Sequence record: DRR723986_4992
DNA length: 47,195 nt
Reading direction: 5' to 3' (one strand)
The position numbers and the translations under genes were made by a program. Under the pieces are notes generated by a model. It was not told where the DNA came from and did not search any database. It saw only the letters and a list, made by a program, of their open reading frames with translations. Positions 371-6,225 of the stretch are shown piece after piece (position 1 is the first letter of the stretch; each line of letters starts with the position of its first letter).

Positions 371-1552
371 TCAGCCAGCGCTTTGCACGTCACGCAGGTC
401 GCGCCCCTGTAGCACCAGCAGGGACCAGGCGAAATAGCACAGGATGATGGCAGCACTGACGGCCCAGGCAGCCGAGTAACCAAACAATGCCAGGTTGGCG
501 CCAGCCAGCAGGGGGCCGGTGACCCGGCCCCAGGCGGCGGCGGAATGCGCGGTGCCCAGCATACGTCCCCGCAGTTCCGGGGGCGTGCGATGACTGGTAA
601 TGGCGTTGAGCAGGGGCATGCACAGGGTGGCCCCGGTCATCGCGGTAAAGGCCGCTGCCAGCATCAGGGGCATGACGTCGGCAAACACCGCGATTACCAG
701 GCCGGTGAAAAACACGCCGATCACCAGGCGCAGGAATCGCAGTTCACCAAGCACCCGGACCAGGGGCCCCATGAGCAGCCCCTGGACCACCGCCATGATG
801 GCGCCCTGGATACCGAACACGATACCGACCTCCCGCGGACCCCAGCCCAGCAGGTCACCCAGCCAAAGCGGGACCAGGTAGGTCAGCGAACTCACCCCGG
901 AATTGTGCAACAGGTACTGCAAGGTCAACAGCCGGTTACCACTGTGCCTGAGCATCTGCCAGGTGCCCAGGCGGGGACCCCGTTGCTGCAGTCGGTTTGC
1001 CTTCCGCCGCTCGGGGGTCACGGATTCCGGCAGAAAAATGCCCGCCGCCAACAGGGCCAACAGGGACACCGCACCCGCCAGCAGGCAGGGCAGGAGGAAA
1101 CTACCCCCATCGCCGGCCAGCAGCCCACCCAGCATGGGACCCATAACCAGCCCCAGCCCAAAGGCGGCGCCGATCAGCCCCATCCCCCGGGCCCGGTTTT
1201 CCGGGCTGGTGATATCCGCCATCATCGCCGAGGCAACGCCGATGCTGCCCGCCATGAGACCAGCAAAGGCGCGCGCGGCGTAGATCATCCACAGCTCGCT
1301 GGCCAGGCCCAGCATGGCGTAGGCAGACGCGGTGCCGGCCATGCAAATCATCAGGACGGGCTTGCGACCGATACGATCAGACAGGCGCCCCCAGTAGGGC
1401 CCGCAGATCCCGGCACAGGCCGCGTAAGACACGATAATCAGTGCGATATCCACCTTGTCGGCACCGAGTTGCGGCGACATAAAAGGCAGGATGGGTATAA
1501 CGATGCCGAAGCCGACCATGTCGATCAGCACGACAGCAAACAGGATGGGCAC
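371..1552 (-). CDS. MFS transporter, DHA1/TetA-like
   Basis: About 12 hydrophobic segments; motif A GRLSDRIGRKPVL; N-terminal DMVGFGIVIPILP; motif C-like GLGLVMGPMLGG. Confidence 0.92.
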   Translation of the reverse strand: MPILFAVVLIDMVGFGIVIPILPFMSPQLGADKVDIALIIVSYAACAGICGPYWGRLSDRIGRKPVLMICMAGTASAYAMLGLASELWMIYAARAFAGLMAGSIGVASAMMADITSPENRARGMGLIGAAFGLGLVMGPMLGGLLAGDGGSFLLPCLLAGAVSLLALLAAGIFLPESVTPERRKANRLQQRGPRLGTWQMLRHSGNRLLTLQYLLHNSGVSSLTYLVPLWLGDLLGWGPREVGIVFGIQGAIMAVVQGLLMGPLVRVLGELRFLRLVIGVFFTGLVIAVFADVMPLMLAAAFTAMTGATLCMPLLNAITSHRTPPELRGRMLGTAHSAAAWGRVTGPLLAGANLALFGYSAAWAVSAAIILCYFAWSLLVLQGRDLRDVQSAG

Positions 1553-1601: not shown

Positions 1602-2165
1602 TTAATCACCCTGCCAGCGTTTTACCTGCTGCAGGTCGATGCCAAACAGGTCCAGGACTCGCCCCACGCTCTGGGTGACTACCTCGTCGAGGCTTTCGGG
1701 CCGGGTATAAAAAGCCGGTACGGGCGGCGCGATGATTGCGCCCATCTCCGACAGCTGGGTCATACTGCGCAGATGTCCCGTGTGCAGCGGCGTTTCCCTC
1801 ACCATCAGCACCAACCGGCGGCGCTCCTTCAGTACCACGTCTGCTGCGCGGGTAAGCAGGGTGGACGTCACGCCGGTGGTGATTTCACTCATGGTGCGGA
1901 TCGAGCAGGGCGCCACCAGCATGCCTTCCGTCTGGAAGGAGCCGCTGGCAATAGACGCACCGACGTTCTTGACCGGATGAACTTCGCTGGCCAGCGCCTT
2001 GACCTCGGCCGCCGACATATCCAGCTCGTGGTGCAAGGTCAACTCCGCCGACTTCGTCATTACCAGGTGCGTTTCCACACCGGCTTCCGCCAGCAGTTGC
2101 AATGCGCGCACCCCGAGCACAATGCCCGAGGCGCCGCTGATTCCCACTATGATTCGTTTGCTCAT
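1602..2165 (-). CDS. ubiX: Flavin prenyltransferase UbiX
   Basis: MSKRIIVGISGASG, IASGS, APCS, RAADVVLKERRRLVLMVRETP, PPVPAFY. Start reassigned to the ATG at 2165. Confidence 0.95.
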   Translation of the reverse strand: MSKRIIVGISGASGIVLGVRALQLLAEAGVETHLVMTKSAELTLHHELDMSAAEVKALASEVHPVKNVGASIASGSFQTEGMLVAPCSIRTMSEITTGVTSTLLTRAADVVLKERRRLVLMVRETPLHTGHLRSMTQLSEMGAIIAPPVPAFYTRPESLDEVVTQSVGRVLDLFGIDLQQVKRWQGD

Positions 2166-2268
2166 GCACTTGAACCGCCATACTGTGCGCAGACTGTAAC
2201 AGCACCGGGGTCGGAATTCATGCCCGATGCGGCCGCCGGGATCCCCGCCCCGGCAGCCCCTCGGCGGG

Positions 2269-4368
2269 TCAGAACCGCCAGCGCAAGCCGGCCTCGACCG
2301 AGCGCCCGGCCTCCGGCGCGACGTCGCGCAGGAAAGAGGTGCTGAGCCGGATCTCCTCATCGGTCAGGTTGTTGAACGCAACAAACAGGGTCACATCGCC
2401 GGCACGGGTGGCGAGCTGGTAATCGACTCCCGCATCCCAGCGAGTGTAAGCCCCGGTGGGTTCCTCATTGGCGCCGGGCTTGTCCTGCTCGTCGGCATCC
2501 AGCACCCGGGTCCAGATTTCCAGGGTATCGGAACTCCAGCCCAGGCGCCCACCGATGCGCATCGGCGGCAGCCGGGGCACATCATCACCGCTGTCCAGCT
2601 CGCCACGGATATAATCACCGAAGATACCCCCGCGCAGTTCTCCACCGGCTATGGCCGCCAGGTGGAAATCACTGTCCAGCTCTACCCCGTAAAACTCGGC
2701 ATCGTCCTGCGCATAAACCAGCACCGGCGTATCGCCTACCGTCAAACCCGTATTCAGCAGGTTGATGTAGTCGGAGAAATCATTGTAGAAGCCGGTCAGC
2801 TCTACCCAGGACTGCTCGCCGCTCCAGCGCAGGGAGATGTCCGCATTGTTGGACACCTCGGTGTCGAGCTCGGTATCGCCAAGCTCGATCGACCCGGTTG
2901 CGGCGTGCTCGACCCACTCGCCGGGACCGGTATTACCCGCGTTGGAATACAGCTCTTCGGTCGCCGGTGCTCGCTCGCTGCGCGACAGCGCCAGGCCAAA
3001 CTGCCAGGAAGCGGTGAGATCCCAGAGCGCCGAGCCGGACGCGCTGAAGGCGTTGAAGTCCTCAGCAGGCGCTATCTCCCGCCGGGTTTCCAGTTCCGAC
3101 CAGTCATAACGCAGGCCAAACTCAAAGGTCCAGTCACCAGCGTGATAGTCCTCGACCAGGAACAGGCCCAGCTCGGTGGTATCGGTCTCCGGGATATAGG
3201 CTTCCTCGCCCAGCGCGCTGAACTCGCCCGCCGAGACCTGCAGTCCGAATACGCCGTGGAAATTACCGACCTGGCGGTGCACCAGCTCGAGACGGCCTTC
3301 CCAGGTTTCATTGCTGAACCGGGTGCCTACCTCGCCACTGCCCTCGATCTCGGCATGCTCATAGTCGGTATAGGTGAGGAAGCCACGCATCACTTCGAGT
3401 GCTTCGATAGGCTCATGCCAGTGCAGTGCTGCATCGTAGCGGGTCTGCTCGATATCCAGACTTACACCGCCCTCTTCTTCTTCCTCCTCTTCTTCCTCGC
3501 CATGTGCTTCTCCGGCGTGATCCTCGTCTTCATGCTCGTGCGCGCCAGCGGGGATACCGTAGGTATTCTCCAGACGGTTTACCGCCAGCCCGAAAAAGCC
3601 ATCATCGAAGTGATAGGCACCACCCAGGGTCAGGCTCTTGGCCCGGCCGGCCGTGTTGCCAATGTAGCCGTCGGTGGTCTCCTCCTCGGCGTGATCCTCG
3701 TCCTCGTGCGCCTCGCCGTCATGGTCCTCGTGCTCATCGCCATGCTCACGCGCGGCCTTGCCCGGAATTTCAAGGTCGTTGTAATCGCGGTACAGGAAGT
3801 CCGCATGCCAGGCAAAACTGCCGCTGCCACCATCTGCCCGGCCAACCACCGTATCGAGGTCCGAAGCGGTGTCATGGCGATACTCGAGCGCAGCCGTGAC
3901 TGCCTGCTCCAGGGTGGTGGGGATGCGATTGTCCAGTACGTTGACCACACCGCCGATCGCACCACCGCCGTAGAGCAGGGTCGCAGGTCCGCGCAGGATC
4001 TCGATACTGTCGGCGAGCAGCGGTTCCACCGAGATGGCATGGTCGCCGCTGAGGCCACCCACATCGGCGCTGGCGGTGCCATTTTGCAGGACTGTGACCC
4101 GCGGGCCCTGCTGGCCGCGGATTACCGGCTGGCCGACGCCGGGTCCGAAGGACGCGTTGGCAAGCCCGGGGGTATTGGCAAGGGTGTCACCAATGGTGGC
4201 CGCAGCGGCGCGGCGCAGGTCCTCGCCGCTGAGCACCGTCACCGGCAGCGCGGTTTCGGCAGATTTCTTGTGCAAGGGGACCGACACCAGGACGTGCTCC
4301 ATCGGCTGGGTCTCGGCCACGGTATGCGCACTGGCAACGGCCAGTACGCAGGACATGAATCGTTTCAT
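2269..4368 (-). CDS. TonB-dependent receptor, ZnuD-like (probable Zn or other divalent metal uptake)
   Basis: Signal peptide, TonB-box-like EHVLVS, plug motif IEILRGPATLLYGGGAIGGVVN, two His/Asp/Glu-rich inserts, EHAEIEG, C-terminal WRF. Confidence 0.9.
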   Translation of the reverse strand: MKRFMSCVLAVASAHTVAETQPMEHVLVSVPLHKKSAETALPVTVLSGEDLRRAAAATIGDTLANTPGLANASFGPGVGQPVIRGQQGPRVTVLQNGTASADVGGLSGDHAISVEPLLADSIEILRGPATLLYGGGAIGGVVNVLDNRIPTTLEQAVTAALEYRHDTASDLDTVVGRADGGSGSFAWHADFLYRDYNDLEIPGKAAREHGDEHEDHDGEAHEDEDHAEEETTDGYIGNTAGRAKSLTLGGAYHFDDGFFGLAVNRLENTYGIPAGAHEHEDEDHAGEAHGEEEEEEEEEGGVSLDIEQTRYDAALHWHEPIEALEVMRGFLTYTDYEHAEIEGSGEVGTRFSNETWEGRLELVHRQVGNFHGVFGLQVSAGEFSALGEEAYIPETDTTELGLFLVEDYHAGDWTFEFGLRYDWSELETRREIAPAEDFNAFSASGSALWDLTASWQFGLALSRSERAPATEELYSNAGNTGPGEWVEHAATGSIELGDTELDTEVSNNADISLRWSGEQSWVELTGFYNDFSDYINLLNTGLTVGDTPVLVYAQDDAEFYGVELDSDFHLAAIAGGELRGGIFGDYIRGELDSGDDVPRLPPMRIGGRLGWSSDTLEIWTRVLDADEQDKPGANEEPTGAYTRWDAGVDYQLATRAGDVTLFVAFNNLTDEEIRLSTSFLRDVAPEAGRSVEAGLRWRF

Positions 4369-4369
4369 T

Positions 4370-4416
4370 GTCTACTCCTGAATTTTTTTGGGAAGAAAGC
4401 TGATTCAGGCGTAGAC
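4370..4416 (-). promoter_or_regulatory. mRNA hairpin sequestering the receptor Shine-Dalgarno
   Basis: On the mRNA, GUCUAC-G-CCUGAAU (4416-4403) pairs with AUUCAGG-A-GUAGAC (4383-4370), 13 of 14 bp with a 19-nt loop. The 3' arm contains CAGGAG and ends 1 nt before the AUG at 4368. Confidence 0.8.
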
Positions 4417-4704
4417 CGGGGGACCTCGTATCTCGGGGGTGTAACTGGGGGCTAAGCGGGGCGCAATTGGGGCAGTAACTGTGACCTGCGGCCATTCGGC
4501 CAGCAGCTGTAGCGCCGGCACTGAGGCGACGACAGCGGTGTCCGAGGACTTCTTGCACAACAGGCAGCTGGTGTAGGCCTCTGCCGCCGAGTGGCTGTGA
4601 CCGGCTTCGAGCAGGGGCGCACCGGCCAGCAACAGCGCTGCCAGCAGGACCAGTACTCTGGCCTGCGCGCCGCGCTGTCTTCGCTGTGAGGAAAAACGGA
4701 TCAT
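4405..4704 (-). CDS. DUF2946-like (CruR/CutF-type) upstream ORF; putative ribosome-arrest leader peptide
   Basis: Basic plus hydrophobic signal peptide, HSH, C47LLC50, Pro-rich tail ending IRGPPVYA. GGAG SD upstream. Lies 36 nt upstream of the receptor gene. Confidence 0.82.
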   Translation of the reverse strand: MIRFSSQRRQRGAQARVLVLLAALLLAGAPLLEAGHSHSAAEAYTSCLLCKKSSDTAVVASVPALQLLAEWPQVTVTAPIAPRLAPSYTPEIRGPPVYA

Positions 4705-4729
4705 GTCCGCTCCATAAACCGGAACAGGG

Positions 4730-4735
4730 ATTATA
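4730..4735 (-). promoter_or_regulatory. Candidate sigma70 -10 element for the uORF-receptor transcript
   Basis: Perfect TATAAT on the minus strand, 25 nt upstream of the uORF ATG. No convincing -35 element. Confidence 0.5.
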
Positions 4736-4806
4736 AACCAGCCCTCAAACCCCAGGCCAGCGGCCGCGGACCTCGCTTCATCGGCTGGCCGTGCCGACCC
4801 GGTGGC

Positions 4807-5634
4807 CTAGCGGGCGCTGAACCGCGCCAGCTCGCGGTCGTCCTGTAACAAGACCAGCACTGCGCCCTCGAAGCGGAAGGCATTTACCTCTCCCAGGGCC
4901 GCCAGGAAGGCGCGCTCCAGCTGGTCACCCTCGGGACAGGCCATCATGGTGCCGGCCAGCGGTCCAAAGGCCAGTGGCTCGCCGTGCGCGGAGGAACCCT
5001 CCCGGCTGTAGCTTCCAAAGTATCGATTGCAGCCGGAGAAACCGGCGGCCCGCTGCTCCTCGGCCTCGAACTGGAGATCGGGCACCCGGCCATCGCTCCC
5101 TGCAACACCGTCACCGCCGGCGAGGGAAACGAGTTCCCAGACGCCCTGCTCCAGCGCCGGGGCCGACCGCACCGGTTCACCGGGTACCCGCTGTACCAGC
5201 ACCTCTACCGGGTTGCCGCTAAAAGCATCGATAAAATCATGATTGGTGAACAACAGTTGCCCGTCCACCTCAATGCGGGCGCGCAGGGCATAGCGCATGC
5301 GGCCATCGATGCCGGCGGGATCGTAGTCGATCGAGAAAGGGTACGGCGGGCCGCTATCGGGGGTGATCAGTACACTGGCGAGCACGGCCGCCGGCGCATC
5401 CGCCCGGGACACATCCTCGAGTTGCACTTCCAGCTCAGCGCCAGGGGGCAGCATCATCCGCTCCCGGTAGAACACCGTGCCTGTTATCGAGCTCATCCGG
5501 TTCTCCTCCGGCGCCGTGCCGGTATCATCCGTCGAACAGGCCAGCAGCAGACACCCCGTCAGGAGGAGCAGCGAGCGCCTTAGCCCGTTGCGCGCGCCGA
5601 TGAAGCGCCCGGTCATTGCGACCCGGCCAGTCAC
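4807..5634 (-). CDS. Lipoprotein with YbaY (YscW-like) and META/HslJ domains
   Basis: Lipobox LLAC; YbaY motif ITGTVFYRERMMLPPGAELEVQLEDVSRADAPA; META motifs GFSGCNRYFGSY and TMMACP. Exact start uncertain. Confidence 0.88.
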   Translation of the reverse strand: MTGRVAMTGRFIGARNGLRRSLLLLTGCLLLACSTDDTGTAPEENRMSSITGTVFYRERMMLPPGAELEVQLEDVSRADAPAAVLASVLITPDSGPPYPFSIDYDPAGIDGRMRYALRARIEVDGQLLFTNHDFIDAFSGNPVEVLVQRVPGEPVRSAPALEQGVWELVSLAGGDGVAGSDGRVPDLQFEAEEQRAAGFSGCNRYFGSYSREGSSAHGEPLAFGPLAGTMMACPEGDQLERAFLAALGEVNAFRFEGAVLVLLQDDRELARFSAR

Positions 5635-6014
5635 GATGCCACCTGCTCAAGCATGTCCCGCATCTTCGCGTGCAGCATGTTTATTGCCTTGAGTGGTCGC
5701 ACCATAACCTTGAACTCGCAGACCTTGCCCTCGTCGTTAACCGTCATCATGTCGATCCCATTGATCGAGATACCGTCCACGGTGCTGACGAACTCAAGCA
5801 CCGCATGCGGCTCGTCGACGATTTCCTTCACGTATTCAAAGCCCTCGCCAAACACATGCATCGCCGCGGTGAGGTACAGGGTGGTGATCTCCCTGCCCCG
5901 CTGCGGGGTGTGCACCACCGGGGACAGGAACACGCAGTCATCCGCCAGCAGTTCCGCGAGCCGGGCCGGGTTGCGTTCGCTCATGATGTCATGCCAGAGA
6001 TCCAGTGCCTGCAT
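5631..6014 (-). CDS. NTF2/SnoaL-like domain protein
   Basis: LLADDCVFLSPVVHTP...G, LEF...INGIDM...EFKVMVRPLKA. Start reassigned to the ATG at 6014. Confidence 0.85.
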   Translation of the reverse strand: MQALDLWHDIMSERNPARLAELLADDCVFLSPVVHTPQRGREITTLYLTAAMHVFGEGFEYVKEIVDEPHAVLEFVSTVDGISINGIDMMTVNDEGKVCEFKVMVRPLKAINMLHAKMRDMLEQVAS

Positions 6015-6225
6015 TGTTGTGCTCCACGATTTTTCGGTGCCCTCGCGCAGCCTGGCCAAAGCTGGGCCAGTGCCTGACAGCGTTTCCAGCGCTCGGGGGA
6101 TTGGGTACTATAGCCGCCAACTTCCATTCTTGCGAGCGCAGCCGGCACCCGTAACGACGCGCTCCCCAGCCCGGTAAATGCTGCGCCTGATGGGCGCGCA
6201 GTTGCGACACCCTGGAACCGCATCC

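Follow-up and report, generated by a model that had tools for sequence, protein, structure and literature searches.

To our knowledge, control of gene expression by a nascent peptide that responds to a metal has been demonstrated only for copper, in the CruR and CutF systems. Here we describe a short leader gene that lies directly in front of the gene for a ZnuD-type TonB-dependent receptor in a stretch of 47,195 nucleotides from sequence record DRR723986_4992 (hereafter the window, to whose full length all coordinates refer). Comparison across related loci indicates that this leader probably encodes a regulatory arrest peptide of the CruR/CutF type, controlling translation of the receptor gene behind it.

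CruR (Bp2923, a DUF2946 protein) of Bordetella pertussis is the leader of cruR-bfrG(crtA)-bp2921; copper relieves its arrest via a CXXC motif, and the spacing between CXXC and the arrest motif RAPP matters (PMC9426467). Toeprinting of the CruR arrest places the third and fourth codons of the motif in the P and A sites of the ribosome, and RGPP is the most robust arrest core, refractory to EF-P (Fujiwara et al. 2025, PMC12992588). CutF is the leader of cutFOG in Rhodobacter capsulatus (PMC9973294, bioRxiv 10.1101/2025.02.05.636593); there, a stalled ribosome melts a stem-loop that hides the Shine-Dalgarno (SD) sequence of the next gene (PMC9973294). RAPP/RGPP leaders are over-represented upstream of TonB receptors across Gram-negatives, almost always with a signal sequence (Fujiwara et al. 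2025, PMC12992588), and 'TonB-like' proteins are the second most frequent downstream neighbours of the 5,334 CutF-like proteins that have been collected (Ozturk et al. 2023, PMC9973294). As for the receptor, the high-affinity buried zinc site of ZnuD consists of Asp-99, His-100 and Glu-340 together with His-499 (PMC4557270).

The elements of the window that enter the argument, with the basis for each in brackets, are these:

4730-4735, minus strand: -10-like hexamer TATAAT, 26 nt upstream of the leader ATG, probably the leader's own promoter (sequence)
4710-4713, minus strand: leader SD GGAG, 5 nt ahead of the ATG (direct sequence reading)
4405-4704, minus strand: leader gene, an upstream open reading frame (uORF) of 99 amino acids (aa) plus stop (translation of the frame; family profile match)
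4603-4704, minus strand: signal-peptide-like start, residues 1-34, with a basic N-region, a hydrophobic run and L-E-A before G35 (sequence features and family consensus)
4591-4599, minus strand: H36-x-H38, within G-H36-S-H38 (H36 invariant and H38 in at least 90% across 51 family sequences)
4555-4566, minus strand: C47-x-x-C50, here C47-L-L-C50 (C47 invariant, C50 in at least 90%)
4429-4554, minus strand: spacer, residues 51-92, conserved in length and variable in sequence (few conserved columns)
4417-4428, minus strand: arrest-type motif R93-G-P-P96, CGA GGT CCC CCG (P95 and P96 invariant, R93 in at least 90%)
4403-4416, minus strand: 5' arm of the hairpin, GUCUACGCCUGAAU, made up of codons V97-Y98-A99, the stop UGA and 2 nt, and holding the anti-SD (fold, comparison)
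4384-4402, minus strand: hairpin loop, rich in pyrimidines and A (fold)
4370-4383, minus strand: 3' arm of the hairpin, AUUCAGGAGUAGAC, holding the receptor SD AGGAG at 4375-4379 (fold, comparison)
2269-4368, minus strand: ZnuD-type TonB-dependent receptor, 699 aa, with two His/Asp/Glu-rich stretches (domain, profile and structure matches)

A conserved leader gene and its receptor

The leader was first singled out in an initial annotation of the window, and the features then listed - a 99-aa uORF with H36-x-H38, C47-x-x-C50 and a C-terminus ending in I92-R93-G-P-P96-V-Y-A-stop - are all found in 4405-4704. Its N-terminus looks like a signal peptide. The claim that I92 and R93 are spelt with rare codons, ATA and CGA, holds for the window's receptor gene, where ATA serves two of 24 Ile codons and CGA two of 33 Arg codons. 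The distance from CxxC to RGPP, put at about 43 residues, comes to 42 residues between C50 and R93, a stretch in which Ala, Pro and Val are abundant.

Does this small frame belong to a family? A word-indexed protein search found just two relatives, and a locus search using the leader alone gave 600 pattern matches, none of them confirmed as a relative. A full HMMER pass over 1.84 billion representatives recovered 51 sequences at E <=0.001, nearly all 96-101 residues long. Aligned with the window leader, these 51 representatives show E33, H36, C47, P95 and P96 to be invariant and H38, C50 and R93 to be conserved in at least 90%. The family has an N-terminal consensus RxxRxLALxALLxxxGxQxLEA and a C-terminal consensus ARGPPxxS, carries a LEAGHxH signature after its signal-like start, and has almost no conserved column between CxxC and the Arg. 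Those members that have names derive from assemblies of Halioglobus, Haliea and Parahaliea.

Orthologous loci were gathered via the receptor, with an alignment of 15 receptor orthologues as the query. From contigs representing one genome per species we took 80 loci (L001-L080), with receptor identity down to 38% and with Cellvibrionaceae, Porticoccaceae, Spongiibacteraceae, Salinisphaerales and Abyssibacter assemblies among them. At 76 of the 80, the leader-family profile finds a leader directly upstream of the receptor and on the same strand; three of the four loci without one (L007, L010 and L035) have merely 62-232 nt of upstream flank.

These 76 loci and the window make 77 modules, on which, or in some cases on 75 of which, the following counts are based. 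The arrest-type motif is RGPP in 49 modules, RAPP in 19, TGPP in six, RDPP in one and irregular in two (L003 and L020). Three residues follow the PP in 61/75 modules, the final residue is Ser in 45/75, and the stop codon is TGA in 66/77. CxxC lies 41-45 residues ahead of the R in 68/75 modules, with a spacer of exactly 42 in 46 of them, and the gap between leader and receptor, 36 nt in the window, is mostly 31-47 nt. The expectation that orthologues would keep CxxC, an RGPP-type motif and a compensating stem is borne out: CxxC, R[G/A]PP and their spacing are conserved, as is the stem, with compensatory changes described below. Comparison of these loci thus shows the leader to be a real, conserved, protein-coding gene, in which a set of residues that could bind a metal (E33, H36, H38, C47 and C50) is invariant and is set apart from R[G/A]PP by a spacer of fixed length.

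The leader profile matches 60 of 301 sampled genomes of the order, with one match in each, and the sequencing runs listed as carrying the sequence are DNA runs, from metagenomes with the labels marine, estuary, sediment, plastic and biofilm; no RNA run is among them.

Codon choice at the motif Arg (window 4426-4428, compared across L001-L080) is also skewed: of 68 modules, 27 use CGA, 23 use CGG, 10 use AGA or AGG and eight use CGC. The 27 CGA codons compare with 4.4 expected from the usage of each locus's receptor gene (binomial p 3e-15, with relatedness ignored); in the receptor genes themselves, 52.5% of the Arg codons are CGC. This preference for a purine-ending, mostly rare Arg codon could reflect slow decoding or an SD-like GAGG/GGGG.

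The protein encoded behind the leader has the Plug (PF07715, 9.6e-21) and barrel (PF00593, 2.9e-40) domains of a TonB-dependent receptor. Its best, and sole strong, match among solved chains is ZnuD (4rdr, E 9.1e-58), and the NCBIfam model for ZnuD, NF038289, matches over its full length with 390.8 bits (E 1.4e-116), below the 950-bit cut-off. In the HMMER alignment the four zinc-site residues of ZnuD fall on D109, H110, E340 and H488 of the window receptor, given a 14-residue offset between the numbering of the paper and that of the chain, which we inferred and which fits all four. All four positions are invariant in the 15 receptor orthologues, and orthologues in Halieaceae are numerous, at 60-78% identity. 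The receptor also has His/Asp/Glu-rich stretches at residues ~205-230 and ~275-300, the second ending in nine Glu; they recall the zinc-catching clusters of loop 3 in ZnuD (PMC4557270).

The anti-SD:SD hairpin and the surroundings of the pair

In the window, GUCUACGCCUGAAU (4416-4403) and AUUCAGGAGUAGAC (4383-4370) pair at 13 of 14 positions with one G.A mismatch, and the 3' arm stops 1 nt short of the receptor AUG (4368-4366), which reproduces the stem originally proposed. Across the family, a typical leader ends in ...C-UCC-UGA, which is the anti-SD CUCCUGA and faces UCAGGAG of the receptor. The preference for a final Ser followed by TGA arises because this ending spells the anti-SD. In loci with four-residue tails or other stop codons the anti-SD is kept and its register is shifted. 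Among the 65 modules that have a gap of 20-60 nt, the minimum-energy fold pairs at least six bases of the SD region with the leader tail and stop in 63.

Covariation was assessed in an alignment of 64 distinct sequences (A4), realigned and trimmed to a set distance from the SD, whose position was that given by MAFFT. When the window's 14-pair structure is imposed on it, 70.6% of cells are paired; sliding the partner by 1-3 columns lowers this to 27.7-49.3%. Covariation scores 0.223, compared with 0.117 +/- 0.009 in shuffled alignments, and none of 500 shuffles reaches it; ten pairs change on both sides, a count that 53 of the 500 shuffles also reach. The compensatory exchanges sit in the outer stem, where the tail codons pair with the spacer between SD and AUG: at pair 8:92, 36 sequences have AU and 10 have UA, and pair 7:93 is UA in 21, AU in 11 and CG in five. 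A control that needs no alignment gives the same picture, with a mean of -12.9 kcal/mol for each locus's own arms, -10.1 for swapped partners (0/10,000 permutations reach the former value) and -5.9 for shuffled 5' arms. The comparative evidence that the hairpin is selected as RNA is strong, though the fold of the single sequence is marginal, and the comparison shows that the mostly three-codon tail and the stop constitute an anti-SD that pairs with the receptor SD.

No Rfam family is found within 4200-4900 at E up to 1. A stricter, two-hexamer consensus scan for promoters, run with one for terminators over 2000-5000, returned none of either. The helix has no U-tract; together with the absence of terminators in the scan, this means that the hairpin is not terminator-like. 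In 44/75 loci, compared with 17/375 control windows, a TATAAT-like hexamer begins between 60 and 21 nt ahead of the leader start, and the module therefore seems to own a promoter and a short 5' leader.

The genes flanking the pair vary by lineage and have no metal link (YscW/META lipoprotein, SnoaL, UbiX-type flavoprotein, MFS, DeaD, GNAT, PhoBR, methylase and others). Since the neighbours differ among lineages and are unrelated to metals, leader and receptor form a conserved unit that travels together. Within Halieaceae there is a conserved synteny of SnoaL-like protein, YscW/META-domain lipoprotein, leader, receptor, UbiX-type flavoprotein and MFS transporter, to which the following genes of the window belong:

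4807-5634, 5631-6059, 1602-2360 and 371-1552, minus strand: genes of the Halieaceae synteny around the leader-receptor pair (no evident metal link)

On the opposite strand, 2227-4455 is an open frame of 742 codons antisense to the receptor; such 'shadow' frames recur in G+C-rich orthologous loci, and we take this one to be non-coding.

Proposed switch, the metal it may sense and rival explanations

A bacterial ribosome covers about 15 nt downstream of the first base of its P-site codon. If it arrests at RGPP in the CruR register, P95 occupying the P site and P96 the A site, the three tail codons would lie inside the mRNA channel and the stop codon at its entrance, so that the 5' arm would be kept unpaired. 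The hairpin would then be prevented and the receptor SD would be free for initiation. The arrest would be relieved when metal is bound by the His/Cys cluster, which would sit just beyond the exit tunnel, and pulling from Sec may help; termination would follow, the ribosome would leave, the hairpin would re-form and the receptor would go untranslated. By analogy with CruR and by homeostatic logic, an importer under such control would be off under metal-replete conditions, while a polarity like that of CutF, with the arrest prolonged by metal, may be an alternative. A tail mostly fixed at three codons and a spacer of fixed length fit a geometry-dependent device of this kind. We infer the arrest and the metal response at the leader by analogy with the characterised systems, and the metal and the polarity of the switch likewise; as far as comparison of sequences goes, the interpretation offered in the initial annotation is supported.

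Which metal would such a switch sense? Two His, two Cys and an invariant Glu make up the ligand set expected of a Zn(II) site. We tentatively put Zn(II) first; copper has a somewhat smaller but still substantial chance, and cobalt, nickel, another metal or none at all seems unlikely. The most specific form of our proposal is itself tentative: it is that this would be the first zinc-sensing nascent-chain switch, in which a Cys2His2-like cluster (HxH...CxxC) on the stalled, exported leader binds Zn(II) just outside the tunnel and releases the RGPP arrest so that the hairpin closes, an arrangement that would replace Zur control of an outer-membrane zinc receptor in Halieaceae and related marine gammaproteobacteria.

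Operator boxes were sought with Zur and Fur consensus sequences and with the published E. coli Zur motif TRWNAYRWTATAWYRTNWCA, which may not be valid for these bacteria. The 160 nt upstream of the window leader contain nothing that resembles a Zur or Fur box (mismatches number 10 for either consensus and seven for the E. coli motif), which agrees with the failure to see a Zur box in the earlier reading of the window. Two distant modules have Zur-box-like sites in the promoter region of the leader: one (L065) ~26 nt before the leader start, with one mismatch to TRWNAYRWTATAWYRTNWCA (reached by 0/2000 shuffles), and one (L075) ~65 nt before it, with three mismatches (14/2000); the latter also has RDPP and a long gap. 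These sites and the four conserved zinc-site residues lend support to the suggestion that the target is of zinc type. A different element is found at L022: ~43 nt ahead of the leader start, and overlapping the -10 region, lies ACATGCGCTAATATAGCATGT, which is 21 nt long and almost perfectly palindromic; it has six mismatches to the Zur consensus (3/5000 shuffles reach this) and may be an operator for some other regulator.

Several observations weigh against the arrest-peptide reading, or against its zinc form. First, the window hairpin folds as initially described, but taken alone it is marginal (z -1.74; 10/200 shuffles fold equally well), and the covariation and codon statistics ignore relatedness among loci. 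Second, the module is not intact everywhere: at one locus (L004, 2990-3010) the leader is deleted and the receptor ATG lies 12 nt past the stop of the upstream META-domain gene, and at another (L003, 2651-2980) an internal stop interrupts the leader frame ahead of the part that encodes RGPP. Third, 7/75 modules are without CxxC at the expected place, and six related Haliea loci (L019, L025, L031, L034, L038 and L060) have TGPP, with Thr codon ACA and preceded by R-Q/L-T; given these cases and the RDPP variant, neither the R nor CxxC is absolutely required. The six TGPP loci keep the three-residue tail and the anti-SD hairpin, so that in this clade either the Arg is not strictly needed for arrest or the switch is weakened. 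Fourth, the leader does not qualify as Pfam DUF2946, its similarity being below threshold. Finally, a ZnuD-type site does not prove a zinc cargo, specificity being unreadable from homology alone, and good Zur-like sites are confined to two of 75 modules, the E. coli motif being one that may not apply. Points in favour of copper, and the effect of a terminating ribosome, belong to the same side of the balance and are taken up with the explanations they favour.

The first of these is that the switch is as proposed but senses copper, as CruR does, with CxxC binding Cu(I) and the receptor importing copper or a copper chelate in spite of its ZnuD-like fold. CxxC is a classic Cu(I) motif. Both characterised relatives, CruR and CutF, respond to copper (PMC9426467, PMC9973294), CXXC is the element of CruR required for copper control (PMC9426467), and most CutF-like proteins of the Cys type adjoin copper genes (PMC9973294). 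Three canonical DUF2946 genes that we inspected precede open reading frames that resemble PCuAC by eye, no family search having been run. Here, however, the receptor keeps all four zinc-site residues of ZnuD and has ZnuD as its sole strong structural match, none of the locus classes examined has a copper gene within ~3 kb, and two distant modules have Zur-like boxes. In an alignment of the three canonical DUF2946 proteins, moreover, CPxC alone is conserved in the ligand region and the invariant HxH and E have no conserved counterpart. We regard a copper sensor as possible, if on the doubtful side.

Another explanation moves the output from translation to transcription: as in CruR, a stalled ribosome would block Rho, and its release would lead to termination before or inside the receptor gene, leaving the hairpin a secondary role. 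This mechanism has been shown for CruR, the only characterised leader of a TonB receptor (PMC9426467), and an untranslated receptor mRNA would in any case be exposed to Rho polarity. The gap, however, is ~36 nt here and typically 31-47 nt in the family, as against 162 nt in CruR, whose authors stress long gaps as typical (PMC9426467), and a conserved, covarying anti-SD:SD helix points to control of initiation. Rho-dependent attenuation as the main output is thus improbable.

An alternative to arrest of any kind is plain translational coupling: the leader would be an ordinary small protein that is exported, say to serve the receptor as a metal-binding partner in the periplasm, and the hairpin would do no more than tie translation of the receptor to that of the leader, with neither arrest nor nascent-chain sensing. 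Any ribosome that terminates at the UGA covers the 5' arm and opens the hairpin briefly, just 36 nt from the receptor AUG, and plain coupling could therefore explain the RNA structure without arrest; the persistence of TGPP and RDPP variants is also in its favour. What it leaves unaccounted for is the anatomy of the peptide. The 42-residue spacer keeps its length and not its sequence, which is the pattern of a ruler and not of a folded domain, and the mostly fixed three-residue tail brings the anti-SD to where a ribosome stalled at PP would have its front edge. The codon of the motif Arg is strongly biased to CGA/CGG/AGA, and proteomes strongly avoid RAPP/RGPP, the exception being small secreted leaders that have it close to the C-terminus (PMC12992588). 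We judge coupling alone to be quite improbable.

Least probable of all is a secretion monitor in the manner of SecM, VemP and ApdA/ApdP, in which Sec pulling alone releases the arrest and ties receptor synthesis to export capacity: the leader's N-terminus is signal-peptide-like and RAPP-type leaders were first found upstream of sec/yidC genes (PMC12992588), but the downstream gene encodes a metal-type receptor and not export machinery, the export signal of CruR is dispensable for regulation (PMC9426467), and invariant His/Cys at a fixed distance from the arrest site are left unexplained.

If the leader is the metal-responsive arrest peptide that we favour, the family offers a compact test case for nascent-chain zinc sensing: the leader has 99 aa, the gap 36 nt and the target is a single gene, and harmless marine bacteria that can be cultivated, such as Haliea, Parahaliea and Pseudohalioglobus, carry it. 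Its anatomy predicts sharply, in that a fixed 42-residue ruler runs from the ligand set to the stall site and the three-codon tail doubles as anti-SD. The family is also common and yet almost invisible to annotation, so zinc regulons inferred from Zur boxes alone would miss the receptor.

Relation to known families and systems

How close is the leader to DUF2946, the family of CruR? The initial annotation had proposed this search, the only one of its computational checks that did not come out clearly in favour, and it is weakly positive: the window leader matches the Pfam model (PF11162) with 15 bits (E 0.043) against a threshold of 23.7, residues 34-96 aligning to profile positions 51-117. 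Twelve of the 51 family representatives match the DUF2946 profile at E < 0.01, the best at 3.7e-4. Canonical DUF2946 genes scoring over the cut-off occur in 3/201 sampled genomes of the class and in none of five Halieaceae genomes. Comparison by hhalign with three canonical members gives a probability of 53.7% over 18 columns around CxxC. A language-model search for look-alikes returned unnamed clusters of ~100 residues, and five of 30 hits share a family set whose listed cluster has 44% DUF2946 members, which we treat as a lead only.

The common ground with CruR is nonetheless considerable. Both leaders are the small first gene of a TonB-importer operon, both have an export-signal-like start and CxxC, and both have a RAPP/RGPP-type motif ~3 residues from the end; the importer logic, in which arrest means on and metal means off, would also be shared if the polarity proposed here is right. 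They differ in length (99 aa here, 145 aa in CruR) and in the extra invariant E-x-x-H-x-H of our leader. The spacing from CxxC to R is 45, give or take a residue or two, in the CruR family (PMC9426467), compared with 42 here and 41-45 in the family of the window leader, values mostly just outside that range, and with 43 in one canonical member. The output differs as well, being a short gap and an anti-SD:SD hairpin here and a 162-nt gap with Rho-dependent termination in CruR. The target is ZnuD-type instead of CrtA-type, and no PepSY_TM gene follows.

With CutF the likeness lies in the output. An exported leader (here signal-like by its sequence), a Cys motif, a C-terminal Pro motif, an anti-SD stem-loop that shields the next SD and a short gap are common to both, and the window leader, with its 99 aa, its PP at residues 95-96 and the 36 nt that separate it from the receptor, falls within the published definition of CutF-like proteins (PMC9973294). 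CutF itself has CxxxC and a PPP-type motif and needs EF-P, and copper raises its stalling so that a detoxifying oxidase is switched on. The leader described here has RGPP, carries the anti-SD within its last codons and stop, and precedes an importer; a polarity opposite to that of CutF is expected because the target is an importer.

Close systems are also the RAPP/RGPP arrest peptides (ApdA, ApdP, ApcA and SecM variants) and the small proteins of a 2025 survey (PMC12992588), which reports a class like the window leader: small secretory proteins encoded in front of TonB receptors, with an RGPP core not far from their C-terminus. The text of that 2025 survey, in the parts available to us, contains no HxH/CxxC set, fixed spacer, tail anti-SD, ZnuD-type target or family-level anatomy. 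On the receptor side, ZnuD of Neisseria meningitidis (4rdr; PMC4557270) shares the Plug and barrel fold, the four zinc-site residues and the His/Asp/Glu-rich stretches. ZnuD is repressed by Zur, whereas the window receptor is without a Zur box and has a leader in its place.

A search of the literature available to us found no zinc-sensing arrest peptide and no leader upstream of ZnuD, the one review that it returned being unrelated. The initial annotation had raised the possibility of an undescribed sensor; RAPP/RGPP leaders in front of TonB receptors, like CruR and CutF, were already published. Three things look new: the existence of this large leader family, most of which Pfam misses, the Cys2His2-like set of motifs that it carries, and a CutF-style output placed on a zinc-type importer. 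The comparison suggests that in this large, gammaproteobacterial and largely unannotated family a module for sensing and arrest that is like CruR is coupled, on a ZnuD-type importer, with an output that unmasks the SD as in CutF.

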